The notes under the pieces were generated by a model. It worked only from the letters and a program-made list of their open reading frames with translations, searched no databases and had not been told where the DNA came from. A stretch of DNA of 64,000 nucleotides, taken from contig JBBRWY010000006.1 in NCBI GenBank assembly GCA_038248875.1, positions 4,094-68,093 on the forward strand, written 5' to 3'. A program made the translations under genes and the position numbers. Positions within the stretch are counted from its first letter, which is position 1; the number at the start of each line of letters is the position of its first letter. The DNA comes from Treponematales bacterium. Lineage in GTDB: Bacteria > Spirochaetota > Spirochaetia > Treponematales > Treponemataceae. Positions 6,494 to 36,078 of the stretch are shown in pieces.

Positions 6494-7108
6494 TCAGCCT
6501 TCTTCTTTCCGGAACAAAGGCTTGCCCGCCTCGGCGCGCACAAAACGACTGGCAAATTCGGCCGGCATAGCCTGGAATCCGTCAAGCACGAGAAAGCCGT
6601 TCGGCACAAGGGTATCGAAGAACATCTGGAGTACCTTCAGCTGATCTTCCGGAGTAAAATGCATCAGCACATTTTTACAGACGATCAGCGACTTATGATT
6701 TTCCGGCGCCTGAAAGGTCAAAAGGTCATGTTTCAGGTACCGCACTTTTTCTCGAATGTCCGGAGTGAGGCGAAAAGTATCCGGATCATCGGTGGCAATA
6801 AAATGCGTATTCCGAAATTTTTCGGGTACCCAGAATACGTCCTTCTTGCTGTACTTGGCTTTCTTTATGCGATTCTCGAACTGGGGGAAATTACTTTCCT
6901 CGAGATCTGTCGCGAGGATGTCCAGATTGCGGAAACTGAAGGGACCCAGGTGCTCGGCAAACACAATGGCCAGGGTAAACGGTTCTTCTCCCGAGGCACA
7001 TCCAGCATCCCATACACGAATTTCCTGCTGCTGGATCATCGCGGGCAGCGCTATCTTGACGATTGCTTCCAGAGCGTCGGGATCTCTGAAGAACGAGGTG
7101 TAGGCCAT
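6494..7108 (-). CDS. CheR-type SAM methyltransferase lacking the N-terminal helical domain
   Basis: Begins directly at the FFRD motif (MAYTSFFRDPDALEAI), followed by IRVWDAGCASGEEPFTLAIVF. The start overlaps the upstream stop by 1 nt. Confidence 0.75.
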   Translation of the reverse strand: MAYTSFFRDPDALEAIVKIALPAMIQQQEIRVWDAGCASGEEPFTLAIVFAEHLGPFSFRNLDILATDLEESNFPQFENRIKKAKYSKKDVFWVPEKFRNTHFIATDDPDTFRLTPDIREKVRYLKHDLLTFQAPENHKSLIVCKNVLMHFTPEDQLKVLQMFFDTLVPNGFLVLDGFQAMPAEFASRFVRAEAGKPLFRKEEG

Positions 7109-7569
7109 CAGTAACGGTAGCGGACGGAACTGAGCGTGATGTTCAGGGGTTCGTCTTCTGCGGTCATGAAGACCTTCGCCACGACGTTTCCTTGGGATTG
7201 TTTCTCAAAATATAGATACTGCGGAAGCTCCAGCTGAATTTCGGAACCCGTACCGAAATATGCCGACAGGAAGGCGCCGGCAATAATATTGAGCATTTCG
7301 AGAATCGAATCCTCGCCATTTTTTTTCTGGATGGAATCGGGTGAGTCTCCGTACAGATTTTCCACAATTTTGTTCCTGAGTCCCCCTGAAAGTCGCAGTT
7401 CGATACGGCAGGAAAAAGGAGCTAACACATCAATGGCCACACACCTTTCGTCTGTAACCGGAACACTTTCCGATTTCTGCACGTCGATGAATGCCATATC
7501 GGCGAAAACGGACGAGACACAGTCTGCAAGGAGTTCGGCAGCTTTTTCCGGATCAATATTATCGCTCAT
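7108..7569 (-). CDS. CheX-like CheY-P phosphatase (putative)
   Basis: 153 aa. DSILEMLNIIAGAFLS contains an ExxN (EMLN) in a context resembling the CheX/CheC active-site helix. Sits between cheY and cheR-like with overlapping stop/start codons. Confidence 0.6.
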   Translation of the reverse strand: MSDNIDPEKAAELLADCVSSVFADMAFIDVQKSESVPVTDERCVAIDVLAPFSCRIELRLSGGLRNKIVENLYGDSPDSIQKKNGEDSILEMLNIIAGAFLSAYFGTGSEIQLELPQYLYFEKQSQGNVVAKVFMTAEDEPLNITLSSVRYRY

Positions 7570-7943
7570 TGAGTACCTCCAAAAATGCGCATTATTTTTT
7601 CGGGAGAAACGGGTTTTTTTATGATGTCGGTAATCCCGAGTTTTTTCATTTCTATTTCTATTGAACCATCAGCAATGCTTGATGTGACGACAACCGGTAT
7701 GTGTGCGGTAACGCTTTTGTTTTTCAAAAGGCGGATGAAGGTTTGTCCATCCATCTTCGGCATATTGATATCGGTGAATATGAGGTCGATTGTGTTGTCG
7801 TCTATTATCGAAAGGCCATCGATCCCGTTCTCGGCATACAAGAATGCGTCAACCTCGATTCCGGTCATTTCGATGCACCGCTGGATAATCATACGGGAGG
7901 TTGGTGAATCATCGACGATCAAAACGTTTTTATAGTGTTGCAT
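7566..7943 (-). CDS. cheY: CheY response regulator
   Basis: 125 aa with VLIVDDSPTSRMI...DLIFTDINMPKMDG...IIKKPV. Confidence 0.85.
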   Translation of the reverse strand: MQHYKNVLIVDDSPTSRMIIQRCIEMTGIEVDAFLYAENGIDGLSIIDDNTIDLIFTDINMPKMDGQTFIRLLKNKSVTAHIPVVVTSSIADGSIEIEMKKLGITDIIKKPVSPEKIMRIFGGTQ

Positions 7944-7966
7944 TCTGTCTCTCCTTGGAACTGTGC

Positions 7967-8446
7967 CTAAATTTTCCAGTCTTTATTTCCGGAAGAAATG
8001 GTCGTTTCGCTTTCTCCGACCGTGATCGAAACCGTTCTACTTATTTCTCCACCGGTATCCTCGGCGACTGCACCGAGCGAGCTTTTCCAGAGGATACGCT
8101 TGGCGGCAAGAATATTCCGTTTTCCAATATCGAAGATCCCCTTGTCGTCCATAACCGAAGCGCCCCCAACCAGTTTAACCTGAATGTGTGCGCGTACAGA
8201 TCCTCGTCCTTTCATATCCTCAATCATTAAGGGCAACCCTCTATCTGCGAAATAGCCCGGGGTCTTTTTCCCTTTCTCGGGATCAATGGACGAGTCGGGG
8301 AGTGCGATATGGATCATGCCGGCAATACCAAGCTTGACATCAAAAATCATAACAGCGAGGCAAGATCCTAGAGCGTACGTTTTAATAACATCTCCCGGAT
8401 TTGAGGAAACAACCCATTCGCCGATTCCGACAACATGTACACTCAT
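7967..8446 (-). CDS. cheD: Chemoreceptor glutamine deamidase CheD
   Basis: YALGSCLAVMIFD...GMIHIALPDS. Size 159 aa. ATGA overlap with cheB. Confidence 0.85.
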   Translation of the reverse strand: MSVHVVGIGEWVVSSNPGDVIKTYALGSCLAVMIFDVKLGIAGMIHIALPDSSIDPEKGKKTPGYFADRGLPLMIEDMKGRGSVRAHIQVKLVGGASVMDDKGIFDIGKRNILAAKRILWKSSLGAVAEDTGGEISRTVSITVGESETTISSGNKDWKI

Positions 8447-9540
8447 GTTACTCTCCGTTTTTGTGGCGGGTCGCCAAGGCAGGACAGAATACTGCCGACT
8501 GCCATTTCAATAGGTATCAGTTTTTCCGCAGCACCATTTTGCCAGGCTTCTTTGGGCATACCGAAGACGACAGAACTTTCCTCATTCTGGGCAAAGCATC
8601 GTGCACCCGCGCGTCGCATTGCAAGAAGGCCGTCCGCCCCGTCCCGTCCCATTCCTGTCAGTATGAGTCCAATCCCTTTTTCCTTTGCAGCGGTCGCAAC
8701 GGATTGCAACAGGATGTCGACAGAAGGCCGATGTCCTGACACTTTGTCGCCTGGTTTGCATTCCACTCGCCACTCGAGTCCGTGCTTGTGTACCGTCATA
8801 TGAAAATCGCCGGGAGCGACGAGCACGAGGCCCTTGTGCACGAGGTCGCCGCTTTTTGCTTCCCGTACTTCAACATTTGAAACCTTGTTGAGCGCTTCCG
8901 CAAACAAGCGGGTAAACACCGGTGGCATGTGCTGCACGAGTACGACGCCAGGCATGTCGGCCGGGAATTGCGGGATGATGGTATTGAGTGCGGTGGTACC
9001 GCCGGTGGAGGCGCCGATCGCAATTATGCGGTTCTCGGTAGTGCTGGAAGTGTTTTCCTTTATGATGGTCTTTTTCTGGTCCGTAATCTTGCCCTGCAGT
9101 TCGCTTTGCGAGCGCCGCAGTTTGACGATGTCGGCTTTCGCGGCCCCTTTTATTTTTTCGGCTAGCTCGGCCAGCATTATACTTAATCCCGCGCGGTTGC
9201 TTGCTTCGGGCTTCGCAACGACTTCGACCGCGCCCGCATCAAGGGCGTCCATTGCACGTTTCGAGCCTTCGAGGGTAACCGCCGAAACAACCACGACGGG
9301 GACGGGATATTGGGGGAGGAGCCTCTTGAGAAATTCGATGCCGTCCATCCGGGGCATTTCGATATCGAGGGTGATGACGTCAGGTTTCAATAAGACGATT
9401 CGGTCGCGTGCCGAAAAAGCGTCGGATGCCTTTCCTACCACTTCAATTTCCGGATCCATGGACAGGCCTCGTTCCAGAAGGTCGCGCGCGATTGCGGAAT
9501 CATCAACGACCAACACCCGTATTTTTTGTTTTTGCGTCAT
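8443..9540 (-). CDS. cheB: Chemotaxis methylesterase/deamidase CheB (REC + esterase)
   Basis: Start trimmed to MTQKQKIRVLVVDDS (ATG at 9538-9540). Catalytic blocks IGASTGG, VQHMPPVFT, LTGMGRDG. Confidence 0.9.
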   Translation of the reverse strand: MTQKQKIRVLVVDDSAIARDLLERGLSMDPEIEVVGKASDAFSARDRIVLLKPDVITLDIEMPRMDGIEFLKRLLPQYPVPVVVVSAVTLEGSKRAMDALDAGAVEVVAKPEASNRAGLSIMLAELAEKIKGAAKADIVKLRRSQSELQGKITDQKKTIIKENTSSTTENRIIAIGASTGGTTALNTIIPQFPADMPGVVLVQHMPPVFTRLFAEALNKVSNVEVREAKSGDLVHKGLVLVAPGDFHMTVHKHGLEWRVECKPGDKVSGHRPSVDILLQSVATAAKEKGIGLILTGMGRDGADGLLAMRRAGARCFAQNEESSVVFGMPKEAWQNGAAEKLIPIEMAVGSILSCLGDPPQKRRVT

Positions 9541-10082
9541 TAATCGGCTCTCTGCAGTTTTTTGATGTCGCTGCCATCCTCGAGGAACATATACTCGTCT
9601 TCGAACCTGATTGATAGAGCGAGCCAACCGTTTGCCGGTGGCAGATCCTTGACCGCAGCGGGTTGCCCGTCAAGACTGGTGTACTGATATCCGAGCACCG
9701 GTAAAACGGCAAGGCCATCTCCCTTGAATTCCCAGGAAAGCGCGAGGTTCATCCGGTAATCATAGCTCGTCCGGCGATTTTCAAGAAGGAGGTCGCCGTA
9801 TATTATAACCCGCTTGACGCAGAGGTTTTGAGTAAATTCATAGGTCGCCTCGTAACATATATTTTCGGTTTCAATGCCCCGCAGGGTGGCGGCACAGAAT
9901 GCTTGTGCGTATGACTCACCATCAACGGTGTGCTCGACCACTTTCCATAATCCGGGTATGATCCGGGCTTTCGGCGCTAGAAAAGATGCAGAATATTCGT
10001 AGTTCCCGCTCTTGTTGGAGGACGCGAGAGACCCGGCAATGAGGTTCGTCATTTCTGTCAGTTTATTTTTTTTAATCGTCAT
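9540..10082 (-). CDS. Hypothetical protein, 180 aa, embedded in the che operon
   Basis: Uninterrupted ORF with an ATGA overlap to the parA-like gene upstream and a 1-nt overlap with cheB downstream. I recognised no motif. Confidence 0.6.
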   Translation of the reverse strand: MTIKKNKLTEMTNLIAGSLASSNKSGNYEYSASFLAPKARIIPGLWKVVEHTVDGESYAQAFCAATLRGIETENICYEATYEFTQNLCVKRVIIYGDLLLENRRTSYDYRMNLALSWEFKGDGLAVLPVLGYQYTSLDGQPAAVKDLPPANGWLALSIRFEDEYMFLEDGSDIKKLQRAD

Positions 10083-10864
10083 AGCGTTTCCAAAAATCCT
10101 TTTTCTATCACTCGTTTATAGTCGCGGGCGGCAAAGCTAGAAGGTCCGCATTCCCAAATCGTGCGGGACTTTTCGAGCGAACGGGTCATGTATTCCGATT
10201 TGCCGATTTCGAAAATGGGAATATGAAAGGACGAAAAAACCTCCCGGTATGTCTTGACCCGGTTCAGCCGATTTTCGGCCTTGGTAAATATAAGCGAGTG
10301 TATCTTGATCGGCTTGCCTGTTTCTTCCGAACAAATCCGAACTTCGTCCAGTATTGATTCCAGTCCCGAAACGGAAAAAAGCTGGAATTCCAGGGGAATA
10401 ATGACCGCATCGCTCGAGCGGATCAGAAGGCGTTCAAGCGGGCTATTGGAAGGGGAGGAGTCGATCAGGATCCAGTCGTACTTTTCGCGCACAGCTTCGA
10501 TGAAAGAGGGGAAGAGTGCGTATGTTTTGACGATGTCCGTATCATGCAGTTCGAGTTTTAGTTTTTTGTTATTCGCCGGAACGAGATCGAGATTCCTGCG
10601 CACATTGCGATGGATAAAATCGGCTGGTTTACATGGCTTTCCGGCAAGGAGCGCGTTCAGGAGATCCCCAAAATTCTGTGTATCTTTGGCCCCAAAAAAA
10701 AGTGAGAGGTTCCCTTGCGGATCTCCGTCGATGACTAAAACCTTTTCACCTTTTTTCGCGAGGCCCGACGCTATTTGAATGACCGATGAGGTTTTTCCTA
10801 CGCCGCCTTTCTGGTTGGCGACCGTCACGACCTTGAGTCCATTTTGGCGGAGACTTATCGACAT
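10079..10864 (-). CDS. ParA/MinD-family ATPase (chemotaxis-cluster associated)
   Basis: Deviant Walker A VANQKGGVGKTS, then VLVIDGDPQGN and ILIDSSPS. Confidence 0.85.
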   Translation of the reverse strand: MSISLRQNGLKVVTVANQKGGVGKTSSVIQIASGLAKKGEKVLVIDGDPQGNLSLFFGAKDTQNFGDLLNALLAGKPCKPADFIHRNVRRNLDLVPANNKKLKLELHDTDIVKTYALFPSFIEAVREKYDWILIDSSPSNSPLERLLIRSSDAVIIPLEFQLFSVSGLESILDEVRICSEETGKPIKIHSLIFTKAENRLNRVKTYREVFSSFHIPIFEIGKSEYMTRSLEKSRTIWECGPSSFAARDYKRVIEKGFLETL

Positions 10865-10870
10865 TTTGTA

Positions 10871-11725
10871 TTATTCTCCCTTTCGATATACTGCCGGTTT
10901 TACATACGAAAATGGACAGTCTTCCCTTCGCAAGGATTCTGAATGTCCGATAAAAAAATACCCGCCCGGCTTAACATACTGGAACAGCGTCTGGACAACT
11001 TTCCTGCGCGATTCCTGATCAAAGTATATCATTACATTGCGGCAAAAAATAGCATCAAATTGTCCTTTCATCGGAAACGTTTCGGCCATTAGGTTCAGTC
11101 TCTTAAAGAGAACCATTTTCTTGATCTCTTCACTTATGGTCATTGTATCATCCGTTTTTTTTCTGAAATACGCATTTTTATAGGCAGCGGGCAGTTCCCG
11201 CAACTTTGTTTCGCTGTAATCACCCCGTTCCGCCTCCTGGAGCGCGGAAAGGGAAATGTCCGAGGCAAGAAGGCCGTAATCGAGCATATCAAGCCGGTTC
11301 CCGTAGTATTCGCGCAACAGCATTCCAATCGAATAGACCTCTTCTCCGGTTGCGCAACCCGCGCTCCATATCCGCAAGGGGTATCGCGCCGACAATTTTA
11401 TTTTGTCCTCTATTCCCGGAAGGATTGTCTTGACGAGAAAATCGAAATGCTCGCGTTCGCGGAAAAAGAATGAATGGTTCGTCGTGATCCGGTTAATCAG
11501 TTCGCTCAGTTCAACGCCCGATTTGTCTGCGGCTAGATAGTCAAAATACGGGGTGAAAGCGCTGAACCCAAGCTGCCGGATGCGCTTCGAAAGGCGACCG
11601 GCAACCAGGATTCGTTTTTGCTCGCTCAAGTAAATACCGAACCGGTCATATAGCATTCCTGCTATGTACTTAAATTCGGTATCACTTAAGGGAACCAGAT
11701 CATTATTCAGTTCCATCATTCTCAA
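10871..11725 (-). CDS. cheR: Chemotaxis methyltransferase CheR (full length)
   Basis: FFREREHFDFL and IWSAGCATGEEVYSIGMLL, with the N-terminal CheR helical domain present. Confidence 0.9.
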   Translation of the reverse strand: MRMMELNNDLVPLSDTEFKYIAGMLYDRFGIYLSEQKRILVAGRLSKRIRQLGFSAFTPYFDYLAADKSGVELSELINRITTNHSFFFREREHFDFLVKTILPGIEDKIKLSARYPLRIWSAGCATGEEVYSIGMLLREYYGNRLDMLDYGLLASDISLSALQEAERGDYSETKLRELPAAYKNAYFRKKTDDTMTISEEIKKMVLFKRLNLMAETFPMKGQFDAIFCRNVMIYFDQESRRKVVQTLFQYVKPGGYFFIGHSESLRREDCPFSYVKPAVYRKGE

Positions 11726-12246
11726 ACCGCCAGGGAAACACCGGACAGATTTTCATCGCGCACGATTTTCTCTACATCGATCAGGATTTTGATGGCTTCT
11801 CCAACTTTACCCATACCGGAAATATACTGATCTTTGCCAGATATAGTCTTGAACTTGGGCGGAGGCTCGATGTTCTTTTCGAGTATCTCCATCACTTCTT
11901 CAACCGTGTCCACGAGGCAGCCGACCAGAATATGGTCGACTTCGGTTATTATGATACAGGTGCGGTTATCGTACGCTCGTTCGGCCATGTCGAAGCGAAG
12001 GCGTAAATCGACGATGGGGATGACCTTTCCACGGAGGTTGATCACCCCTTTTACGTAGTTTGGCAGATCAGGCACCATCGAGATGGTCTGCAGTTCGATA
12101 ATTTCGATCACATATCTGATGCCCACTCCGTAAGACTCTTTTCCTATTTTGAAGAAAAGGTATTTGTTCGCCTGAGTATCTTCGTTGTCATCGTCATCAG
12201 TCAGGAGTTCGTCCTGTGCTTCAGCTTTTCTGTTGTTCTCGGACAT
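11722..12246 (-). CDS. cheW: CheW coupling protein
   Basis: 174 aa with YLFFKIGKESYGVGIRYVIEII...VINLRGKVIPIVDLR. Confidence 0.9.
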   Translation of the reverse strand: MSENNRKAEAQDELLTDDDDNEDTQANKYLFFKIGKESYGVGIRYVIEIIELQTISMVPDLPNYVKGVINLRGKVIPIVDLRLRFDMAERAYDNRTCIIITEVDHILVGCLVDTVEEVMEILEKNIEPPPKFKTISGKDQYISGMGKVGEAIKILIDVEKIVRDENLSGVSLAV

Positions 12247-12260
12247 ACTTCCTCCTTTTT

Positions 12261-15128
12261 TTAGAACTTGCCGAAATTATTGTCGTCGAGCGAAATAATG
12301 TCGGCAGGATTGACCTTGGACGGTTTTGATCGAGTTACTGCTGCGTTTTGCATTTTAGCTGCAGATGCCATCGTTGGTGCTGATTGCCGGTGGGAATTGT
12401 CTCGATTGGCCAGTTCTGTACGGAGCATGGCCATGACGTCCGCATTGTTCATCTTTCCTTCCTGCGCCTTCAGTTTGAAACGGCCGAGCATAGACTTGAC
12501 CTGTTGTGCCTGAGATGACAGTTCTTCGGATGCCGAGGCGCTTTCTTCCGCGCTTGCCGTATTGCTCTGTGTTACCTGGTCGATCTGGTTGAGACCGAGG
12601 GAAATCTGTTCGAGGCCTTGCGTCTGTTCGCGTCCGGCCGTTGCCACTTCTTCGGCAAGGACTACTACCTGTGATGCGCCATCAACAATTTCGCTCAGTT
12701 GTTTTGCCGTACCATCCACGAGGACGTTACCGCGCTGGATGTTACTGATCGCTTCATCTACCATGATCGTCGTTTCTTTAACCGAACTTGCGCTGCGGAC
12801 AGCGAGGTTGCGAACTTCTTCGGCGACGACCGCGAAGCCTTTTCCGTACTTACCGGCTCGGGCTGCTTCGACGTTTGCATTGAGTGCAAGGAGGTTGATC
12901 TGGAAGGCGATGTCATCGATCGCGATGACGACTTTCTTGATTCCCTCTGCGCTGGCATTAATGTCCTTCATTGCGGAAACGAGTTCGTTCATCTGGATAT
13001 TACCCTTTTGAGCATTATCCTGTGCACCCTTGGCAAGGGTGTTCACCTTGAGAGCGTTTTCCGTATTGGTACGGGTCTGGCTCGAAATCTCGGTAGTGGA
13101 AGACGTAATTTCTTCGAGCGAAGCCGCCTGTTCGGTAGCTCCCTGCGAAAGAGCCTGGCTTGCTTGCGATACCTGCAGCGAACCTTCTGCTACCTGATCA
13201 ACCGCCGTGGTGATTTCGCCGAGGGTGTTGTTGATTGATTCGAGCGAATCGTTCATTGAGGTCTTGAGAATGTCGAAATCTCCCTTATACACACCATTCA
13301 TGCGCAGCGTCATGTCGCCTTCGGCAAGTCGGGTAAGGATAGCAATTGTTTCGTTAACCGGTGTGATGACGAGGTCGAGTGTCTTATTAACACCGTCGAC
13401 GATCTTCTTATAATCCCCCTGATGCTTCGTAGCATCGGCACGGGTCGAAAGCTTTCCGTCGATAGCTGCTTCGACAAGTATACTTGCATCGCTGACGAGT
13501 GCGTTGATCGCGACAATACAAGCGTTGAGGTTCGTTTTGATAATATTGTATTGCCCTTTGTACACCGAGGTAATCTGTTCGGGAATCGCTCCACGAGAAA
13601 TCTTGTCAACATAGTCGGCTGTTACCATCAACGGATTGACGATGTTGGTGATGGTTTCGTTGACGCCTTTGACCAGCTGATTCCATCCGCCGAGGAATAT
13701 GTCGGCGTTGGCACGTTTGTCCAGATCTCCGTCCGCTGCAGCCCTGATGATGACATCTGTTTCACGGAGGAGGTCACTCATCATTTTGACGACAGAATTG
13801 AGGTTGTTCTTGATGATGTTGAAGTCGCCATTGTAGGAATCGGTGATAACCGGCGGAATGACACCCTTACTGATATCATCAACATATTTCGCGGTGACGT
13901 TGAGTGGTCCGATGACTGCATCAAGTGTTTTGTTGACGCCATCCACGATCTTGCGGTAGTCGCCCTGGTGCTTGGTGGCGTCTGCGCGGGTCGAGAGTTT
14001 GCCGTCGACAGCTGCCTGCACGAGTAAGCCTGCGTCCACGACGAGCGCATTGATGTTGTCTATTGCCAGATTCAGGTTGTTCTTGATTTCGTTGAAGTCA
14101 CCGTTGTATGAATCCGTGATCTTCGGCGGGAGGTCGCCTTTCGAAATACGGTCAACATAGTTCGCTGCAACATTGAGCGGTCCGATAACGGCATCGAGTG
14201 TCTTGTTGACGCCTTCGACGATCGAATGGTAGCCGCCTTTGAACTTCGAAGCATCTCCGCGGGTGGACAGCCTTCCGTCCACGGCAGCCTTGGTGAGCAT
14301 CTCTGCTTCGCCGATCAGCGCTCCGACAGTCGCGATGACGCCATTGAGGGAGGTTGCAACCTGCATGAACTCATCTTTCGATTTGACTTCCATTTTTTCT
14401 GAAATATCGCCTGCGGCAAGTTTGTCAAGAATAGCGACAGATTTTTTGAGCGGATTAGCAATCGATGTGCCCAGAATAATTCCGAGGATGAGGGCAACAA
14501 TGAATGCAAGTATGGTCACAATGATAAGAATGACTTTACCCGTATTCGCGCTCTGTATTGCCTGTTTGGGCAGGTCGATTCCATAATATTGCTGGTCATA
14601 GGTAAGAACTTTTCTCACCGCGTTTTGAACGTTGTCGAAGACGAGTCGTTCATCGCCGGAAATAAGTGCATATATTTCCCGGAAATATGCTTCACGTTCC
14701 TCCGGTCCCGCGTTTTTCGCTTTTGTCGCGAGTTCCATTATTGTATTATTGTAGGCAGCCGCTGGCCCAATCAGGGCGGTAACTTCTTTCCAGAGTTTGG
14801 CCTCTTCGGGGACATTGGGAATAGCCTCGAATTTCTCGAGCGCTGCCTTGTAGGAGGTCCGCGCTTTTTCTATATTGGCCAACTGCCGCTTGTATGTTGC
14901 CTCGTCATCAATAGTCAGGGGATTAGAGAGCGTACGTATGGCTACTTTCAGATTGGTCAGTTCCAGATCGATAGAACTCAGGGCATTGAGAGAAGGGATG
15001 GTCTCTTCCGCTAAGGCAACTAGGTTTTTATCAAGGCTGCTTATCTGCATAATTCCCACTACACCAACGATGCCGCATAATACTGCTACGGCGATGAAAC
15101 CGGTAAGCAACTTGGCCAATATTTTCAT
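12261..15128 (-). CDS. Transmembrane methyl-accepting chemotaxis protein with a poly-HAMP array
   Basis: Two TM helices flank a ~170-aa extracytoplasmic domain. These are followed by four ~91-aa repeat units and then the signalling core [47 protein letters not shown] lies upstream of the ATG. Confidence 0.9.
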   Translation of the reverse strand: MKILAKLLTGFIAVAVLCGIVGVVGIMQISSLDKNLVALAEETIPSLNALSSIDLELTNLKVAIRTLSNPLTIDDEATYKRQLANIEKARTSYKAALEKFEAIPNVPEEAKLWKEVTALIGPAAAYNNTIMELATKAKNAGPEEREAYFREIYALISGDERLVFDNVQNAVRKVLTYDQQYYGIDLPKQAIQSANTGKVILIIVTILAFIVALILGIILGTSIANPLKKSVAILDKLAAGDISEKMEVKSKDEFMQVATSLNGVIATVGALIGEAEMLTKAAVDGRLSTRGDASKFKGGYHSIVEGVNKTLDAVIGPLNVAANYVDRISKGDLPPKITDSYNGDFNEIKNNLNLAIDNINALVVDAGLLVQAAVDGKLSTRADATKHQGDYRKIVDGVNKTLDAVIGPLNVTAKYVDDISKGVIPPVITDSYNGDFNIIKNNLNSVVKMMSDLLRETDVIIRAAADGDLDKRANADIFLGGWNQLVKGVNETITNIVNPLMVTADYVDKISRGAIPEQITSVYKGQYNIIKTNLNACIVAINALVSDASILVEAAIDGKLSTRADATKHQGDYKKIVDGVNKTLDLVITPVNETIAILTRLAEGDMTLRMNGVYKGDFDILKTSMNDSLESINNTLGEITTAVDQVAEGSLQVSQASQALSQGATEQAASLEEITSSTTEISSQTRTNTENALKVNTLAKGAQDNAQKGNIQMNELVSAMKDINASAEGIKKVVIAIDDIAFQINLLALNANVEAARAGKYGKGFAVVAEEVRNLAVRSASSVKETTIMVDEAISNIQRGNVLVDGTAKQLSEIVDGASQVVVLAEEVATAGREQTQGLEQISLGLNQIDQVTQSNTASAEESASASEELSSQAQQVKSMLGRFKLKAQEGKMNNADVMAMLRTELANRDNSHRQSAPTMASAAKMQNAAVTRSKPSKVNPADIISLDDNNFGKF
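13209..14288 (-). repeat. Intragenic tandem repeat, 4 x ~273 nt (91 aa), encoding the poly-HAMP units of the MCP
   Basis: Units start at residues 281 (AAVDGRLSTRGDASKFKGGY), 372 (AAVDGKLSTRADATKHQGDY), 463 (AAADGDLDKRANADIFLGGW) and 554 (AAIDGKLSTRADATKHQGDY). Each contains GVNKTLD...YNGDF..IK.NLN. Confidence 0.85.
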
Positions 15129-15204
15129 TTATATCCTCCTAAAAAGTGAGACAGTCCTTTGAACTATCTCGATAACCCGTAATTGATATAGTAACCTGTA
15201 CGGA

Positions 15205-17457
15205 TTACTCGAGACGCATTGATAATAATTTTCCCGTATCTATGATAAAACTGACGCCGCCGTCGCCGAGAATGCTGCAACCGGATATGCCTTCGACCTT
15301 GCCGAGATACTCGGAAAGGGATTTGACGACTATCTGCTGGTTGCCGATGACCTCGTCGATCAGGATGCAGGCCTTGCGGCCGTTGTTCTGTACCACAATG
15401 ACGATGCCCTTGCTGGGATCGGTCACTGCGCCGGGAATCTTGAAGACCTCGGCGAGCTTTATCAGAGGTAAAAACCCGGACCGGATGTTTATGGTTTGCT
15501 CGCCCTTTTCGGTCTGCGTGACTTGTGCCGGCGTTACCTTGAAGAATTCGAAAATGTCATTGAGCGGAATGGAGTAACGGTTTTTGCCTGCTCGCACGGT
15601 AATGCCGTCGATAATGGCCATCGTAAGCGGGATGGTAAGAATGAACTCGGTGCCCTGACCGACTTCGGTTTTTATTTCGACTTTCCCCCGGATTCGTTCG
15701 AGGTTTTTTTTAACAACGTCGAGACCGACCCCGCGACCAGAAACTTCTGATACTACGTCTGCAGTTGAAAAACCTGGCTCGAAAATGAAGGCATAGGCAT
15801 CCTTGTCCGAAATGGTCGCCGGATCCTGTTTCAGAATCCCGTTTTTAGCAGCTTTCGCGAGAATTTTATCTCGATTGAGCCCCGCGCCGTCATCCTTGAT
15901 ACTGATCCAGATCTCCGAGCCTTCATACCGCGCATCGAGGTGAACCGTACCTGTTTCCGGTTTACCTGTTGCTTTCCGTACTTCTCTCGACTCGATTCCG
16001 TGATCGATAGAATTGCGCAGAATATGGACCAGTGGATCTGATATTTGCTCGATAACATTCTTGTCCATTTCGGTGTCCTGGCCCGAAACGATGAAGTTGA
16101 TCGGTCGGTCGAATTTGCGGGAAAGATCGCGCACGAGGCGGGTCATCTTCTGGAACAGACCGTCGAGCGGAATCATGCGGATCATCATGGTCGTTTCCTG
16201 GATTTCGCGACTGATCTTGTTAAGACTTGCGAACGACTTTGCAAAGCTGTCCAGTTTGAGACCAGTCAGATCGGCGTTGTTGATGACCATAGATTCTGCG
16301 GTAATCAATTCGCCGACCAGTTCGAATAATTTGTCGAGCTTGGAGGTGTCCACGCGGATTTCCTTGCGGACAACTTCCTTGCTTGTTTCCTGCTCCGGAC
16401 TCGGTCCTTGCGCTTTCTGGATTTTAAGGGCTTCGTTCAGGTCCTCGCGGGCGACCGATCCTTTCTGGACGAGGATTTCGCCGAGCGGGCGCTCCTGTTC
16501 GTCGAGGGCGTCCTGGATCGTTTCGTCTTTGATGACGCCCATGTCCACCAGAATTTCTCCGAGCGGACGATAGGGTGTCGGAGGTTCGGTTGACGTAACA
16601 GCCGGAGGCACGAAGGGCAGGTCAAGCGGGTCGGTATCCGCTTGTGTGATCGAATCGTTTCCAGCTTCCTGGATAACAAGCGTATTGAGACTCATCCGTA
16701 TACGATCTATGGTATGAATTATTGTATTGATGAATGGCTCACCCACCGGCGTCGGGCTTTTGCGTGCAGTGTCCAGCACTGTTTCGAGGTTCATACACAG
16801 GGCTTCAAGGAAAGAATATCCGAAGAACCCCGAGTTGCCTTTTATAGTATGAATCGCCCGAAACATGTCGTGAACCGCATCTGTACTCACTGCCTTGGGA
16901 TTGATCTCGAGTGCTATTTTTTCGGTACGATCGACGAGGTCGGCACATTCGCCAATAAAGCGTTGTACCATATCGCGGGTAACGAGGTCACTGAGGAACA
17001 GTTCGTTGGGAATGGCGGGTACGGCTGATTCTTTCGGTTTGTTACCATCCCGTAATGATTTGATCATCGCGGTTACAATAGAAGTCTGTTTTGCAACTTC
17101 TTCAGCGCCGCTTTCATCGGTATATTCTTTTTCCACAATACCGATCAGCTTGCGCAGAATGTCAACGGTTGCATACACCACATCAAGGGCATCGGCAGTG
17201 ACCGGCACTTTTTCCTTGAGAAAGACGTCAAGCATCGTTTCGGCTTCATGGGTCAATTTTTTGATATTTTCAAATCCCAGATAGCCGGCCGATCCCTTTA
17301 CTGAATGAAAAAGGCGGAAAACCGAATTTAATTGTGCAGTGTTGTCGCCATCTCCCAGACGGGATAATTGTGTTTCCGAATCGTCAAGACGTTCATACCC
17401 TTCTGCAACGAAGGAAAGAAGAATCTCGCGAGTTTCATCATCGATGCTTTTGGGCAT
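15205..17457 (-). CDS. cheA: Chemotaxis histidine kinase CheA (two HPt domains, no recognisable P2)
   Basis: Start trimmed to MPKSIDDETREILL (ATG at 17455-17457). HPt boxes FHSVKGSAGYLGF and IHTIKGNSGFFGY. N-box DPLVHILRNSIDHGIE, G1 IKDDGAGL, G2 SGRGVGLDVV. C-terminal CheW-like domain. Confidence 0.9.
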   Translation of the reverse strand: MPKSIDDETREILLSFVAEGYERLDDSETQLSRLGDGDNTAQLNSVFRLFHSVKGSAGYLGFENIKKLTHEAETMLDVFLKEKVPVTADALDVVYATVDILRKLIGIVEKEYTDESGAEEVAKQTSIVTAMIKSLRDGNKPKESAVPAIPNELFLSDLVTRDMVQRFIGECADLVDRTEKIALEINPKAVSTDAVHDMFRAIHTIKGNSGFFGYSFLEALCMNLETVLDTARKSPTPVGEPFINTIIHTIDRIRMSLNTLVIQEAGNDSITQADTDPLDLPFVPPAVTSTEPPTPYRPLGEILVDMGVIKDETIQDALDEQERPLGEILVQKGSVAREDLNEALKIQKAQGPSPEQETSKEVVRKEIRVDTSKLDKLFELVGELITAESMVINNADLTGLKLDSFAKSFASLNKISREIQETTMMIRMIPLDGLFQKMTRLVRDLSRKFDRPINFIVSGQDTEMDKNVIEQISDPLVHILRNSIDHGIESREVRKATGKPETGTVHLDARYEGSEIWISIKDDGAGLNRDKILAKAAKNGILKQDPATISDKDAYAFIFEPGFSTADVVSEVSGRGVGLDVVKKNLERIRGKVEIKTEVGQGTEFILTIPLTMAIIDGITVRAGKNRYSIPLNDIFEFFKVTPAQVTQTEKGEQTINIRSGFLPLIKLAEVFKIPGAVTDPSKGIVIVVQNNGRKACILIDEVIGNQQIVVKSLSEYLGKVEGISGCSILGDGGVSFIIDTGKLLSMRLE

Positions 17458-17536
17458 ACCTTTTTTCGCTCCCGATAGTTTATTTAAGTGTAGTTGACAC
17501 TTAAAAAAAAACAAGGGGTAAAAAAATAATTTTTGT

Positions 17537-18580
17537 TTATGCTTTAATAGCCCAACGGAGGCGTGCTGAACGGGCGCGCGGATTCGCGTATTTTTCGGCA
17601 GCCGTCGGGAAAATCGCCGTTTCGGAAACGGAACTGTAGAGGCCTGCTTCGAATCCTGCCATGAAGGATCCGGTGACGCGGCGATCTTCACCCGAATGGA
17701 AAGTGAGGATAGCGATGCGCCCTCCTTTTTTCATGCACAGGGGAATTTGGGCGAGCAGGGTATCGAGCGCCGAAAATTCTCCATTTACTTCAATCCGGAT
17801 AGCCTGGAAGGTGCGCCTGATTGTTTTTGTAATATCATCTTCGCTTTGGTGCAGGGGAGCGATGGCCGCCGTGACGGCTTCGGCAAGATCCCGGGTGGTG
17901 AGAATTTTTCCGCGGCGCTGGCAACAGACACGGGCAATGGCGGGTGCCTCTTTTTCGTCGGAATTGTCCCGGAGCAGGGCGGCTAGTTTTTTTTCGGGGA
18001 TACGTTCAAGGAGGAGAGCAGCAGAAGCTCCCTTGGACGGATTCATCCTCATATCGAGTGGGCCGTTTCGTTTAAAGGTAAACCCTCGCTCGGGATTGTC
18101 AATCTGCATCGATGACACCCCGAGATCGGCGAGAGCGAGGTCGAAGCCGCCGGGAACGTCAATGGTGAGCAGTTTGGGAAGTCCCGCAAAATTGATATGG
18201 CGGGTGCTGAAATTGTCTTCGGTAAAGCCTTCAGCTCGAAGGCGGGATTCGGTTTTAACGATTTCTATCGGGTCTGCATCAAGGCCCCAGAGCTTACCCC
18301 CGGGCAGGATGGTCTTGAGTATTTCCCGCGAGTGGCCGCCGTAACCAAGGGTGCAGTCAACTGCGATTTCGCCGGGCTGTGGCGCAAGAAATTCGAGGAT
18401 TTCCTGTACACAGATGGGGCGGTGGCTGCCGGCCGGGGTGTCTCCGCGGGCAATCACTTTCTCGATATCCTCGCGGTAGGAATCGGGATTGTGTTCCTTG
18501 TATTTTTCCGAGAAGGTATGGGGATGGGTTCCTTTGTAACGTACGCGTCGTTTGTGTGGTTCGACCGGCTCTTCATTCAT
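17537..18580 (-). CDS. rsmH: 16S rRNA (cytosine1402-N4)-methyltransferase RsmH/MraW
   Basis: DCTLGYGGHS, DLGVSSMQID, ILTFHSGEDRRV. Confidence 0.85.
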   Translation of the reverse strand: MNEEPVEPHKRRVRYKGTHPHTFSEKYKEHNPDSYREDIEKVIARGDTPAGSHRPICVQEILEFLAPQPGEIAVDCTLGYGGHSREILKTILPGGKLWGLDADPIEIVKTESRLRAEGFTEDNFSTRHINFAGLPKLLTIDVPGGFDLALADLGVSSMQIDNPERGFTFKRNGPLDMRMNPSKGASAALLLERIPEKKLAALLRDNSDEKEAPAIARVCCQRRGKILTTRDLAEAVTAAIAPLHQSEDDITKTIRRTFQAIRIEVNGEFSALDTLLAQIPLCMKKGGRIAILTFHSGEDRRVTGSFMAGFEAGLYSSVSETAIFPTAAEKYANPRARSARLRWAIKA

Positions 18581-27700: not shown

Positions 27701-28080
27701 TTAACTTGTCCTCGCGGCTCGAAACCCTCACGAAGCTCCTAAAAACGAAGGTGCTTGTCACGAACAACTGCCTCGAAAATTTCTCGGGTTTGCCATCGCG
27801 GTATGTGGGAAAAGTGAAAGTGAAGGGAAAAACTGTTCTGGTTGATGTGTCCGAATTGCTGTTTGAAGATGAAAAAATCGCTTCGCTCTCGCTGTTCGTG
27901 CAGGGCATGCAGGCGTACGAATCGCGGGATTTTGCAACAGCTGCAGCCTTGTTCCGCTCTGTCATCCAGCTCCATCCCCAGGATTTTATTGCCGATCTCT
28001 ACCGAAAGAAATCGGAGGACAGCCTCGTCAATCCGCCGCTTACCGACGCCCTGCAGTTCATCGACATGGAGCATATCTAG
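24778..28080 (+). CDS. 7TMR-DISM-type receptor - HisKA/HATPase - REC - class III nucleotidyl cyclase (1100 aa)
   Basis: Signal peptide, a ~190-aa extracellular domain and about 7 TM helices. H-box THELKTPLNGIIG; DTGIGIP, GGTGLGL. Receiver VFIVDDEPINL...LLLDIMMPGISG...YLTKPF. Cyclase blocks MTVLFSDIRSFAAFSE, FVDKYIGDGIMALFPG, IGIHTGSVVMGTVGE, MSDVVNLSSRLE. Confidence 0.85.
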   Translation: MRRILCLLITTVSLFLFAPTTLHAEYAQFSVPSTEWEAGGTVELKTAWDFYWDRLIEPEEFVGDPVLDGLKSDRKLVPGFWTYDSYPVYGKATLRLLCRSDVPFPDAMSLGFYSIYSAYRLYVNGQLVAEMGTLGDSAATETGRAPRTTVYFTTQSAKTLDIVLQISNHSYSNIGGIGGPPVLGSQKVLEQKQYRENLVDLLVAGSLGFMGIYLITLFLFRRKDRSPLYLGLFALSLVMRQLMISGGKSIFLIVPFMDVVLWDHLQPLAIYPLLPLLILYVVTLFPHPRQRIPVFFFCTESVVLMFLYYMPVSIAVQDVFVLIRDVCMLFGLLYVFWVCLIAWRKKHSESGLVALGMVLVIILGVNDVLNSMKIINTNYYITFGVWFFLLFQSIILARRFSRAFQSVEDLSRSLAEKTQTLLELDVLKDEFLANTTHELKTPLNGIIGITESLSSGDLGDLSSEQKRQLNLVATSGRRLFTMVNDILDFSKIRKNKMRFYPVDLDFLEVAKPICEVFSGETQKRGLFLENNVASDLPHLLADPARLEQILYNLLGNALKFTPKGGITLSAGTDGSFFWFCVEDTGIGIPQEKQELIFESFQQADGSISRKFGGTGLGLTITKNLVEIQQGIITVASKEGEGSRFTVYLPLADTASGSDTPLYEDARGDEGLEMLPEIGSPTEMITAFPSLPKGDESIPLVFIVDDEPINLQVLQNFLAGSQYRVTVAGDGKTAIRLIREGLNPDILLLDIMMPGISGYEVLEDLRKTYLPVELPVLLLTAKNQTHDIVAGFALGANDYLTKPFSREELLARIRAHIGLKKINNAYNCFVPREFINLLGKESLLDLRLGTQIQRDMTVLFSDIRSFAAFSEHMTPGESFSFINSYLSRFGPIIRQHGGFVDKYIGDGIMALFPGKPADALLATAEMRNQLGVYNEHLVNTGYVPIEFGIGIHTGSVVMGTVGEAQRMDTTVMSDVVNLSSRLETLTKLLKTKVLVTNNCLENFSGLPSRYVGKVKVKGKTVLVDVSELLFEDEKIASLSLFVQGMQAYESRDFATAAALFRSVIQLHPQDFIADLYRKKSEDSLVNPPLTDALQFIDMEHI

Positions 28081-29687: not shown

Positions 29688-29692
29688 AATCA

Positions 29693-29718
29693 ACGGCGGT
29701 TAAACGACCGCCGTTTTT
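29693..29718 (+). terminator. Rho-independent terminator after gltX
   Basis: ACGGCGGT (29693-29700), a 6-nt loop, ACCGCCGT (29707-29714), then a T-run to 29718. Confidence 0.7.
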
Positions 29719-29852: not shown

Positions 29853-29881
29853 TTGACTCCTGAACTATTTCGAACCATAAT
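29853..29881 (+). promoter_or_regulatory. Putative sigma70-type promoter (TTGACT-N17-CATAAT) 5 nt upstream of the ATG
   Basis: Hexamers at 29853-29858 and 29876-29881. No Shine-Dalgarno sequence between the -10 and the ATG at 29887. Confidence 0.4.
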
Positions 29882-29886: not shown

Positions 29887-32175
29887 ATGAATTCCAAAAA
29901 TCATTCAAATTGGAATTTCAGAGCAGGCTTGAAAATGGGTGTTCAGGAAATGACTCGCGAGATCATATACACTGTTGAGGAAAAATGTGTTGGCTGCAAC
30001 AAATGTATTCGGAAATGTCCGGTTGTCGGGGCAAATAGTTCCTGGATGTCCACGGATGGAAACAAGGTCCGTGTCGATCAGGAAAAATGCATACGCTGCG
30101 GGGCCTGCCTAGATGCTTGTTCCCATGAAGCCCGACAATATCGGGACGATACCGCTTCTTTTTTCGAGGATCTTTCTCGTGGTACGGTAATATCGGTAGT
30201 CGCTGCACCGGCAGCACGTGTCAACTTTGAAAATCATCGTCGTTTGATTGGCTACCTCAAGACCTGCGGAATACATTTGGTGTATGACGTGTCATTTGGT
30301 GCTGACATTACTACATGGGCGTACCTCAAAGCAATTAAGGAAAACGGTCTTTCATCAGTCGTTGCGCAGCCCTGTCCCGCTATCGTGAACTATATAGAAA
30401 AATATCAAAGCAGCCTGATTCCAAATTTAGCTCCAGTTCATAGCCCAACATTGTGCACGGCAATCTACCTTAAAAAATATGAACATCTTACGGAGAAGAT
30501 TGCCTTTTTGTCACCGTGCATAGGCAAAATCGATGAATTCCGCGATCCGAATACCTCTGCAAACGTATCCTACAATGTTACGTATCGAAAATTGTATGAG
30601 TACCTTCGAGAAAAAAGTGTTGATCTATCCCGGTACAATGAAGTGGAATTTGATGATATTGGCTGCTGGCTCGGCTGTTTGTACGGTCGTCCAGGCGGGT
30701 TGCGGGAGAATGTCGAATCGTTGGTCCCGGGCGCCTGGGTACGACAAATCGAGGGCAAGGAACATGCATACCCATACCTTACGCAGTATGGAAAACGAAT
30801 TTCCCAGGGAAAAAAGGTACCGCTTCTCGTTGACATTCTCAATTGCTCGAACGGCTGTAACCGGGGAACGGCAACCGTGGGGACATTGTCCATAGATGAT
30901 TCTGATGCACAATTGAATGAACTCAAGAATCAAAAAAAGGCTGGCAATAAGAAAGCCGAGCTCTTTGCCATGTTTGATGAAAAATTGAAACTCTCCGATT
31001 TTATGCGGGTGTATTCAGATCGTTCCGTTTTGATGAAAGAACCAAACTCCGTCGAGTTGGATACTATTTATGCTAGCCTGTACAAGACCACCCCGGAATC
31101 ACGTAAAGTAGACTGTTCAGCCTGCGGTTATGACACTTGCGCCTTGATGGCGATGGCTATTCATAACGGAATAAACAATAAGATGAACTGTATCAGGTTC
31201 AATCAGTGTGAAATCGAACTTGAATCTCGAAGCATCAACGAAAAAACCCAATTTATCGATGAGATTACCCGCTATACAAATATGATCGTGTCTGTTCTTG
31301 ACAAGGCAGCAAGCCTTGATCTCGATGTCGAGCTTACAGGGGAGTTTAAAGGTGAATTCGGAAAAATAAAGGATTCGATCAATCACATTCTGGAAATTCT
31401 CGACAGTACGCTTAGTGTGATTCGCGATGCCGCTACCGAATTCAGCGCGGGTGCGGATCAGGTGTCGATGGACGGCTCCCGAGTCGCCGAGGGTTCCTCC
31501 GGACAAGCAGTGGCAGTGGATAAGCTTTTATCGCTGATTACTATGCTTTCCGAGAAAACCTCACTGAATACAAGCAATGCTAAAAAGGCACAGATTTTGA
31601 CTGTTTCGGCTAGGGATGCCGCAGATGAAGGGAACCGCCGAATGCGAGATCTTCAGAAGGCAATGGGTGAGATTAATACCTCGTCAGCCAATATTGGCAA
31701 AGTCCTTGCAACAATCGAATCAATCGCTTTTCAGACGAATCTGTTGGCCCTCAATGCTGCTATAGAGGCCGCCCGGGCGGGAAAATACGGGAAAGGTTTT
31801 GCTGTTGTCGCCGAAGAGGTGCGGATGCTGTCGAGAAAATGTTCCGATTCGGTGCGTGAAAGCGCTGACTTGATACAGGAATCAGTATCAAAAGTGAAGG
31901 CGGGGACAGGAATCGCGAACGATACCGCTGTCGTCCTTGATAGGATTGTTAGCAAATCCACCGATATTGCCGGAATTGTCGCGGCGATCGCCCTAGCATC
32001 TGGGGAACAATCAGAAGGGATCGAGAACATCAAGGGCAACGTTCAGCAGGTTTCACGTGCGGTTCAGTCCAATACCACTGTCTCGCATGCAAGCGCTGCA
32101 ACCAGTCGAGAATTGTCCGATTTAGCCACGTTACTCAAAGATAGCGTATATCAGTTCAATTTGCGGCAGAGATAA
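29887..32175 (+). CDS. Soluble chemoreceptor: 2x[4Fe-4S] ferredoxin + [FeFe]-hydrogenase H-domain-like + Cx2Cx4Cx16C + MCP signalling domain
   Basis: [12 protein letters not shown] and [13 protein letters not shown]-cluster-type motifs [54 protein letters not shown] core [36 protein letters not shown]. No TM segment. The exact start is uncertain (alternatives at 29935 and 29950). Confidence 0.85.
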
Positions 32176-35058: not shown

Positions 35059-36078
35059 ATGGAATACATAACAGTAGGAAAGACGGGACTGATGGTCTCG
35101 CGAACCGCATTTGGGGCTCTTCCGCTCCAACGTGTAACCGAAACAGGCGAGGCTGTCTCGCTCATCCGCGCAGCATACGAAGGCGGTATCAACTTTTTCG
35201 ACACAGCCCGATCATATTCAGATAGCGAGGAAAAACTCGGGCTTGCAATGGACGAAATCCGCAAGGACGTGATAATTGCCACAAAGTCTGCAGCTCGAAC
35301 CGGCGAGGACATGAAAAAAGATCTTGAAACAAGCCTGCAAACCCTGGATACGGATTATATCGACTTGTATCAGCTACACAATCCCTCATTTGTGCCGCTT
35401 CCTGATGGAGAGGACGGCCTTTATGACGCTCTTCTCGAAGCCAAGAAGGCGGGTAAAATCCGGTTTTTTGGCATTACCAATCATTCACTCCAGTTGGCCA
35501 CCACAGCAGTCGAAAGCGCTCTCTACGATACGCTGCAGTATCCGCTTTCTTATCTAGCAGATGTGAACGACCTTGCACTCGTACAATTTTGCGGCGACAG
35601 GGATATGGGCTTCATCGCGATGAAGGCGCTTGCCGGTGGGCTTATTACCCGCATACCTGCTGCTTTTGCCTGGATGCGCCAATTCGAGGGTGTCGTTCCT
35701 ATTTGGGGAATACAGAAAAAAACGGAACTTGCCGATTTTCTTGCTCTCGAGATGAATCCGGTTCAGCTTGATGACGAGATGAAGCTGCTTATTGAAGCGG
35801 ACCGCAAAGCTCTCTGCGGTAACTTTTGCCGTGGCTGCGGCTACTGTCTTCCTTGCCCGGTAAGTATTCCTATCAATAACGCGAACCGGATGAGCCAGTT
35901 GCTTCGCCGCTCCCCGACCGATCAGTGGTTAACACCCGAATGGCAGGAGCTGATGGGCCGCATCGAAAACTGCACCCGGTGCGGCATCTGCGAGCAGCGT
36001 TGTCCTTACGGGCTCAAGCCGTACGAGACAATGCCCGCCCACCTCGCTGATTACCGGACTTTCCTCAAAAAAGATTAA
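35059..36078 (+). CDS. Aldo/keto reductase with a C-terminal Fe-S (Cys-rich) extension
   Basis: GINFFDTARSYSDSEEKLG, DLYQLHNP. C-terminal CGNFCRGCGYCLPCP and CTRCGICEQRCP. Confidence 0.85.
   Translation: MEYITVGKTGLMVSRTAFGALPLQRVTETGEAVSLIRAAYEGGINFFDTARSYSDSEEKLGLAMDEIRKDVIIATKSAARTGEDMKKDLETSLQTLDTDYIDLYQLHNPSFVPLPDGEDGLYDALLEAKKAGKIRFFGITNHSLQLATTAVESALYDTLQYPLSYLADVNDLALVQFCGDRDMGFIAMKALAGGLITRIPAAFAWMRQFEGVVPIWGIQKKTELADFLALEMNPVQLDDEMKLLIEADRKALCGNFCRGCGYCLPCPVSIPINNANRMSQLLRRSPTDQWLTPEWQELMGRIENCTRCGICEQRCPYGLKPYETMPAHLADYRTFLKKD

Follow-up and report, generated by a model that had tools for sequence, protein, structure and literature searches.

A soluble spirochete chemoreceptor with a sensory-type [FeFe]-hydrogenase-like input module as a candidate receptor for H2 taxis

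What does a chemoreceptor perceive when its input domain resembles an [FeFe]-hydrogenase? This question is raised by a gene at 29887..32175 (+ strand) of the window, as we call the whole 64,000-nucleotide stretch analysed here (contig JBBRWY010000006.1 of the Treponematales bacterium assembly GCA_038248875.1, positions 4,094 to 68,093). In the list of open reading frames (ORFs) the gene encodes 762 amino acids (aa) from the first ATG, and a sequence-only reading had proposed that its product is a soluble methyl-accepting chemotaxis protein (MCP) with a HydS-type input that mediates H2 or redox taxis from a cytoplasmic array. There is good support for classing this product as an [FeFe]-hydrogenase-like chemoreceptor of the sensory type that is fused to an MCP. 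Judged from the residues that are retained and lost, we further favour, with a probability of roughly 55%, that it functions as an H2-responsive taxis receptor in which a sensory-type [FeFe]-hydrogenase input is placed on a soluble MCP of the 36H class. Residue numbers refer to the full 762-aa ORF unless 746-aa numbering is stated, and equivalent positions of the H-domain are given in CpI numbering.

The protein consists, in this order, of two ferredoxin motifs, an H-domain, a Cx2Cx4Cx16C site, a HAMP-like linker and an MCP signalling domain. Pfam Fer4 families cover residues 28-82, and the two [4Fe-4S] ferredoxin motifs of this F-domain lie at aa 34-45 and 68-79 (29968..30132, +); both of the CxxCxxCxxxCP motifs previously noticed are present, although the second one ends in CS rather than CP. 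The [FeFe]-hydrogenase H-domain (aa 103-327; 30193..30867, +) matched PF02906 Fe_hyd_lg_C with 92.9 bits against a cutoff of 22.1, and this match terminates exactly at the CxxGCxxG of the L3 motif. It is followed by a conserved linker domain (aa 328-409; 30868..31113, +), defined by homologue conservation and all-helical in the AlphaFold2 (AF2) secondary structure, and by the C-terminal accessory [4Fe-4S] site, an exact Cx2Cx4Cx16C motif (aa 410-435; 31114..31191, +), over which PF04060 ('putative Fe-S cluster', residues 407-436) scored 22.8 bits, 0.2 under its cutoff of 23. The last Cys of this site immediately precedes the first helix of a HAMP-like helix-connector-helix unit (aa 436-505; 31192..31401, +), which gave a weak HAMP_2 match at 456-505 and was modelled by AF2 (746-aa numbering) as a helix at 420-458, a low-confidence connector at 459-473 and a second helix from 474. 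The MCP signalling hairpin of the 36H class (31402..32172, +) matched PF00015 MCPsignal at residues 573-724 with 150 bits and includes a kinase-contact tip of 20 residues (31765-31824, +).

No transmembrane (TM) segment was detected in the receptor, whose maximum Kyte-Doolittle 19-residue mean is 1.49, while the three other MCPs of the window peak at 2.0-3.4, so that it is the sole soluble MCP there. Likewise, no Pfam PAS match was obtained for the receptor, and since the linker region is all-helical in AF2 and devoid of beta-sheet, it does not hold a PAS fold. The AF2 model, built from 70 homologues, reached a block pLDDT of about 86-97 over residues 10-390, with values above 90 in the H-domain and a whole-chain mean of 82. 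In a Foldseek comparison of this model with the PDB, the top matches were all [FeFe]-hydrogenases (probability 1.00, about 380-465 aligned columns, TM-score of 0.67 normalised to DdH); only group A enzymes matched, and no structure of a group C or D sensor was found in the PDB by sequence or fold. The module is a complete F-domain plus H-domain in which the cluster ligands are all kept and the catalytic proton pathway is not. Pfam and hydropathy bear out the domain order given by the sequence-only reading, with a full MCP domain and no TM helix, and its quoted strings were all recovered (VAQPCPAIV around 160-164, SPCIGKIDE at 209-217, NCSNGCNRG within 316-327, and the exact Cx2Cx4Cx16C motif at 410-435).

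Residues of the H-domain were mapped by a phmmer alignment to solved group A enzymes (CbA5H, the T. kivui and T. maritima HydA, and HDCR HydA2); the phmmer matches for this domain include CbA5H, HydABC and CpI. The four H-cluster Cys (CpI C300, C355, C499 and C503) correspond to Cys163, Cys211, Cys320 and Cys324. Cys163 is part of the L1 motif AQPCP (TSCCP in CpI; aa 160-164; 30364..30378, +), in which Pro162 (30370-30372) stands in place of the proton-relay residue C299. The L2 motif SPCIGKIDE (MPCxxKxxE in CpI; aa 209-217; 30511..30537, +) provides Cys211, retains K358 and E361 as K214 and E217, and carries Ser209 instead of M353, while the L3 motif (ExMxCxxGCxxG in CpI; aa 316-327; 30832..30867, +) provides Cys320 and the bridging Cys324, with Leu318 replacing M497. 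In the sequence SPTLC (aa 186-190; 30442..30456, +), which corresponds to the SPQQ region of CpI, S323 and P324 are retained, Q325 is changed to Thr, and an extra Cys190 (30454-30456) occupies the position of I327. APSVR of CpI (A230, P231, S232) reads APAAR, so that A230 and P231 are retained and S232 is replaced by Ala.

The cluster-ligand contexts have therefore been kept, as previously stated, with K358, E361, A230 and P231 retained in addition to the four ligand Cys. The replacement of the proton-relay Cys was also correctly recognised, and it turned out to be part of a larger change: E279 is absent within a 3-residue deletion, E282 is replaced by Tyr, R286 by Ile and S319 by Ala. A catalytic role as in group A was rejected because the proton pathway (C299, E279, E282, S319, R286) is entirely gone and neither M353 nor M497 is kept. 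Pro162 and Cys190 are clade-specific pocket features that occur in no characterised sensory hydrogenase described in the literature examined. Cys190, three residues past P324, might act as a substitute proton relay or as a ligand with a protective function.

A word-indexed protein search with query residues 1-450 yielded more than 100 MCP-fused proteins with 53-78% identity to this region, originating from Teretinema (Treponema) zuelzerae, Desulfocucumis, Desulfotomaculum, Oxobacter, Sporomusa, Ignavibacteriales and Deltaproteobacteria. Across 120 aligned homologues the 16 cluster Cys were 99-100% conserved, far more than chance would give, with all eight Cys of the F-domain kept in 99-100% of the sequences and the four Cys of the Cx2Cx4Cx16C site, as well as Cys190, conserved in 100%. 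Mean identity to the query was 59% in the sensor versus 35% in the MCP part, and by this measure the sensor is constrained more strongly than the output. At least three length classes among these homologues (about 640, 727 and 750 aa) indicate that different MCP signalling classes are combined with one sensor. Some orthologues, e.g. P0003 and P0028, retain an EQ pair at a Tsr methylation position.

An exhaustive search of 1.84 billion cluster representatives returned 3357 matches with E < 1e-3, 672 of them below 1e-30. All of the 150 best 50%-identity representatives match through the C-terminal Fe-S motif, and 53 of them contain an MCP domain. The 55 non-MCP representatives that were scanned carry HisKA (27), HATPase_c (26), receiver (20), GGDEF (18), EAL (6), SpoIIE (4) and HD-GYP (1) domains as outputs, and only about 14 of the 55 include a PAS domain. 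The sensor thus forms a portable N-terminal input module that serves no fewer than five kinds of signalling output; architecturally, this is strong evidence of a sensory function. We tallied the pocket signature over 267 relatives and found it to be the same whatever the output: position 299 is Pro in 253, position 353 is Ser in 251, position 497 is Leu in 260, the position of CpI V423 is Leu in 259 (Leu272 in the receptor), and that of CpI I327 is Cys in 253. The H-cluster Cys are present in 267/267, gaps in truncated sequences aside, and K358, E361, A230 and P231 are essentially invariant. The module also occurs inside very long multi-domain signalling proteins such as P0205 (1693 aa), and in P0196 it is internal (residues 775-1206) rather than N-terminal. 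Stand-alone versions of about 430-490 aa with the same QPCP motif exist as well.

Sensory [FeFe]-hydrogenases are described as enzymes in which the ligands are retained and C299 and the other proton-pathway residues lost, with N-terminal cubanes, a C-terminal Cx2Cx4Cx16C motif and, in group C, a PAS domain (PMC8163306, PMC10055695, PMC10407848, PMC13104023). Each of these features except the PAS domain was found in the receptor, including the two named earlier as HydS hallmarks, loss of the relay Cys and the Cx2Cx4Cx16C accessory cluster, and the receptor is on these grounds best described as an MCP-fused branch of group C. In groups C and D, C299 is changed 'mostly into alanine', as in A131 of TmHydS and A137 of TamHydS (PMC10407848). 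M353 and M497 vary among sensory enzymes, being Gly/Ser in TmHydS and Ser/Leu in TamHydS, and Ser is found at position 353 in about 32% of them (PMC10055695). TmHydS and TamHydS, in both of which the Cx2Cx4Cx16C motif has been reported (PMC8163306), bind [2Fe]adt and react with H2 in vitro (PMC10055695, PMC8163306, PMC10407848).

TmHydS (Thermotoga maritima, group C, M2f), for which binding of [2Fe]adt and slow H2 turnover have been demonstrated, resembles the receptor in its N-terminal clusters, ligating Cys, loss of C299 and the proton pathway, small residue at M353 and Cx2Cx4Cx16C site. It differs in having Ala/Gly/Ser at positions 299/353/497 and a terminal PAS domain, whereas the receptor has Pro/Ser/Leu, an extra Cys at I327, no PAS domain, and a HAMP-like unit and MCP output fused directly to the sensor. 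TamHydS (Thermoanaerobacter mathranii, group D, M2e) shares with it the absence of PAS, Ser and Leu at M353 and M497, the Cx2Cx4Cx16C site and the lack of a canonical proton pathway. In contrast to the MCP-fused receptor, TamHydS stands alone, measures about 430-450 aa, carries Ala at 299, has a group-D-specific proton pathway that begins at E252, and keeps E282; the E252 and E282 positions are an invariant Leu and a Tyr, respectively, in the receptor. Membership in group D, for which the Ser/Leu pair and the missing PAS domain would speak, was rejected because the group-D Glu (E252, CpI V423) is Leu and an output domain is fused. The designation HydS-type thus holds with respect to the features of the sensory groups, but not for the details of TmHydS, since position 299 is Pro rather than Ala, PAS is missing, and the M353S/M497L combination follows the TamHydS pattern.

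The closest published category is [FeFe] Group C2 of HydDB, annotated as 'chemotactic (putative)' with its role listed as undetermined (Sondergaard, Pedersen & Greening 2016; PMC5037454). Like the receptor, it comprises a group-C-type H-domain linked to an MCP, with H2 sensing for chemotaxis as the proposed function; there is no demonstrable difference between the two, and membership of the receptor rests on architecture and the published description. We found no experimental study of a C2 member in the literature searched, in agreement with the earlier statement that this MCP-linked subgroup is catalogued and uncharacterised. Group C is still credited in reviews with a putative sensory role only (PMC8924675). 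HemAT and Aer2, in which a haem globin or PAS input is combined with an MCP, are likewise cytoplasmic MCPs with an N-terminal, cofactor-bearing gas or redox sensor, and the MCP half of the receptor scored 8e-46 against the NCBIfam model of Vibrio Aer2; their sensor folds are unrelated to that of the receptor, and they use haem rather than an Fe-S/H-cluster. The [NiFe] system HoxBC-HoxJ of Ralstonia eutropha similarly couples H2 to a signalling protein through a slow, sensor-grade hydrogenase, but its metalloenzyme family is unrelated, it works together with a histidine kinase as a separate complex, and its target is transcription, not motility.

The C-terminal 290 residues of the receptor align to E. 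coli Tsr 230-519 free of gaps (1.8e-40), and it was placed in the 36H class on the basis of this alignment. A complete che operon, identified by Pfam 12-22 kb upstream (7108..17691, -), is the putative signalling partner. It encodes CheA (15205-17691, -), a 36H MCP with two TM segments (12261-15128, -) and single-domain CheY (7566-7943, -), and further CheW, CheR, a ParA-like ATPase, CheB, CheD and CheX. The che-operon MCP shares 102/255 identities with the receptor at 0 gaps, has an identical tip motif and also aligns to Tsr gap-free; the other two MCPs of the window align to the receptor or Tsr only with gaps. From this match we infer that the receptor signals through the CheA/CheW of this operon. 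Since the che-operon MCP has two TM segments, membrane arrays, and not only cytoplasmic ones, could take up the receptor. Of the cytoplasmic array that had been proposed, the soluble receptor stands, while the location of the array is conjectural, the best-matched partner being a two-TM MCP. The ParA-like ATPase gene (AAA_31; 10079-10864, -) is followed by a 180-aa ORF devoid of Pfam matches (9540-10082), and its place within a che operon is reminiscent of the array-positioning systems PpfA and ParC. At the end of the operon (-) lie a second, N-terminally truncated CheR gene (6494-7108), a metallo-beta-lactamase-fold gene (5874-6491) and a histone-deacetylase-family gene (5108-5887).

In the mechanism that we propose, the receptor would be a soluble dimer that H2 reaches by diffusion into the cytoplasm, reacting at an H-cluster held by Cys163, Cys211, Cys320 and Cys324. 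Because the proton pathway is gone and the pocket methionines are replaced by Ser and Leu, turnover would be slow and a reduced state of the H-cluster would accumulate, in proportion to the H2 pressure relative to the ferredoxin pool, with which electrons would be exchanged via the two N-terminal [4Fe-4S] clusters. A redox or conformational change would then run through the helical linker to the C-terminal [4Fe-4S] domain and from the HAMP-like helix along the four-helix bundle to the tip, which would control the CheA/CheW of the che operon and hence, via CheY, flagellar rotation. As the HAMP-like helix starts right after the last Cys of the C-terminal cluster in the AF2 model, this domain may be what couples the sensor mechanically to the signalling helices. 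H2 does not reduce the C-terminal cluster of TamHydS, and it alters the secondary structure of that enzyme (PMC13104023); by analogy, the signal is more probably conformational than a redox change of this cluster. We infer that the [2Fe] subcluster is bound and that H2 is the signal, and likewise the sign of the taxis response, the transmission route and the CheA partner.

Several points weigh against this H2-sensing role. HMM and motif scans (hidden Markov models) revealed no hydE, hydF or hydG in the 64-kb window nor in 96 related loci, and the window contains no hydrogenase gene other than the receptor, unlike the situation of many M2e/M2f sensors. Pro at 299 and the extra Cys190 lack a precedent among studied enzymes, and such a pocket might not accept the cofactor. 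A survey of acetogen genomes dropped its C2 matches as they failed the H-cluster motif check (PMC9431212), which also shows how readily C2-like proteins are lost when motif filters are built around group A. On the output side, the receptor has GQ, DK, TM, HA and RE at the Tsr methylation positions and no Glx-Glx pairs, while the che-operon MCP has EQ, EE and EE; adaptation of the receptor may consequently be atypical, either methylation-independent or at other sites. Finally, the TamHydS precedent makes electron transfer to the C-terminal cluster unlikely as the signal.

The main rival explanation that draws on these points is a redox or energy-taxis receptor with Fe-S clusters only, in which the H-domain would lack the [2Fe] subcluster, as in Nar1/CIAO3-type proteins, and four cubanes would report the ferredoxin/NAD(P)H redox state or oxidative cluster damage to the MCP. 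We consider it doubtful, at clearly lower odds than H2 sensing. It would account for the missing maturases and for the verdict of the acetogen survey, a Pro in place of C299 might modify the pocket for the cofactor, and the sequence-only reading had likewise allowed 'redox' as the input. In the flanks of 79 of the 80 metagenome loci (1.06 Mb in all) among the 96 related loci no catalytic-type hydrogenase ORF was present; the remaining locus (L068, 9923-21347) has a catalytic-type H-domain ORF of 434 aa within 10 kb. In these 80 loci, 76 sensors are MCP-fused, four have CheA and CheW within 10 kb, and no HydE/G-like gene was found; a single KamA-like radical-SAM gene was found among the 96. Yet maturase genes are commonly unlinked, e.g. 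in Pelobacter, so their absence from the flanks says little and neither supports nor refutes assembly of the cofactor. Moreover, the residues relevant solely to the [2Fe] site (A230, P231, K358, E361 and the GG-L-E segment) are invariant across phyla, and the same features are seen in the nearest characterised sensory enzymes, which do bind the cofactor. Taken together, these findings lead us to retain an H-cluster-bearing, H2-responsive receptor as the preferred reading.

A further alternative concerns the output. H2 or redox state might be sensed with a consequence other than swimming, i.e. cyclic di-GMP (c-di-GMP) signalling, biofilm formation or development, which for the receptor studied here we regard as improbable. 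It derives from Desulfocucumis palustris (GCA_002933875.1; L016, 10001-21939), whose homologue heads a che-like operon encoding a CheA-receiver hybrid, CheW, a HAMP-MCP, a receiver-GGDEF protein, CheB, CheR and a receiver, and from the frequent direct fusion of the sensor to GGDEF or EAL. This operon points to organisms in which a c-di-GMP output, and not motility, receives the H2/redox input. Against its application to the spirochete receptor, the che operon of the window has single-domain CheY, CheX, CheD, CheR and CheB, a composition typical of motility control, and the Oxobacter homologue adjoins flagellar genes. Sensing of another gas or stress (CO, O2 or NO) that binds or damages the clusters and elicits a repellent response is the least probable alternative and has slim prospects: H-clusters bind CO and react with O2, TamHydS yields a distinct stable O2 product, and relatives occur in the CO-using or strictly anaerobic genera Oxobacter, Sporomusa and Desulfotomaculum, but sensitivity to CO is lower in the characterised sensory [FeFe] enzymes than in their catalytic counterparts, irreversible cluster damage is poorly suited to reversible chemotaxis signalling, and no sequence feature specific to CO or O2 was found.

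The class itself is not new, having been in HydDB since 2016 and being abundant in metagenomes, and the receptor is a good representative of it. What we add is the clade-wide Pro/Ser/Leu/Cys pocket signature, which neither of the two studied HydS enzymes has, the wide range of outputs fused to a sensor that is more constrained than its outputs, and the match of a Tsr-compatible 36H output to one specific che operon. In the literature searched we found neither a spectroscopic study of the conserved pocket chemistry of this sensor nor a paper describing a receptor for hydrogenotaxis. Taxis toward H2 has been demonstrated in Methanococcus maripaludis alone (PMC3817446). That the receptor is a true H2 chemoreceptor, the first molecularly defined one for hydrogenotaxis, and at the same time represents a third type of sensory pocket (Pro299/Ser353/Leu497 plus Cys at I327) is a combined proposition to which we give about even odds. 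Hundreds of histidine-kinase, diguanylate-cyclase and MCP fusions over at least four phyla have the same pocket; if the proposition holds, H2 would be a widespread direct input to the motility, two-component and c-di-GMP pathways of anaerobes.

Anaerobic food webs have H2 as their central currency. A receptor that senses H2 directly in the cytoplasm would account for the way in which fermenters, acetogens and sulfate reducers place themselves in steep H2 gradients, e.g. those of sediments, granules and guts. The candidate described here is compact, soluble and made of a single polypeptide. The gap-free alignment of the signalling half to Tsr should ease chimeric-receptor assays, and a portable sensor with a pocket chemistry of its own is of interest for second-sphere tuning of the H-cluster.

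Gene callers reported a 746-aa form starting at Met17 (29935) on the identical public contig (P0001), and the consensus of homologues starts near this residue. A sigma-70-like promoter candidate (TTGACT-17-CATAAT, 10/12 consensus positions; 29853..29881, +) lies in an AT-rich leader, although shuffled sequences yield at least as many such sites as this region does. Its -10 element ends at 29881, only 6 bases ahead of the first ATG, which makes a start at 29935 likelier than one at 29887; Met17 is probably the real start, giving a 746-aa product. The candidate promoter would imply a monocistronic transcript beginning near 29888. A strong terminator-like hairpin with a 10-bp stem and a T-run after gltX (29692..29715, +) sets the receptor gene apart from the upstream gene, and about 320 nt separate its stop codon from glyS, so that the gene looks monocistronic. 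No conserved neighbourhood was detected across the related loci, and the receptor gene is usually an orphan. In one metagenome locus (L085, 9953-16442), the MCP-fused sensor has a paralogous sensor protein of 1039 aa as a neighbour, encoded about 1.4 kb away on the other strand.

The receptor sequence was present in two sediment DNA metagenome runs, one of them SRR19962012, and in no RNA run; the exact protein was found on one 4.4-kb Logan contig only. In a collection of genomes from 185,579 species, its nearest homologues belong to Treponemataceae metagenome-assembled genomes (MAGs), with 61-63% identity. The neighbouring GlyRS is 81-83% identical to that of Treponema spp. and Treponemataceae MAGs, its best match reaching 92%. 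The source is a free-living, Treponema-like spirochete of an undescribed Treponemataceae lineage known from sediment metagenomes alone, and not a gut symbiont. Unlike that of the H2-rich gut treponemes previously mentioned, its habitat is sediment.

Rfam and tRNA scans of the window gave no match. The window is dense in signalling genes, beginning with a receiver-PAS-PocR-PAS histidine kinase (488-2902) and a divergent MCP (3027-4415) with an adjoining single-domain receiver (4412-4765). Further along are a PAS histidine kinase (18651-20633) with a receiver (20645-21040), a two-TM MCP (21182-22669), a CheC/CheX phosphatase (22899-23663) and a PAS-HWE kinase (23667-24725). The gene just ahead of gltX, second in the upstream direction from the receptor gene (24778-28080, +), encodes a hybrid protein of 1100 aa that combines a 7TMR-DISM membrane sensor with HisKA/HATPase, receiver and class III adenylate/guanylate cyclase domains. 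Among the window's ORFs of 280 aa or more, only the one at 35059-36078 (+) has a CxxxCxxC motif; its product is an aldo/keto reductase with a C-terminal 4Fe-4S dicluster domain, not a radical-SAM maturase. In Desulfocucumis, a cas gene cluster of a type I-C CRISPR-Cas system lies directly upstream of the che-like operon.

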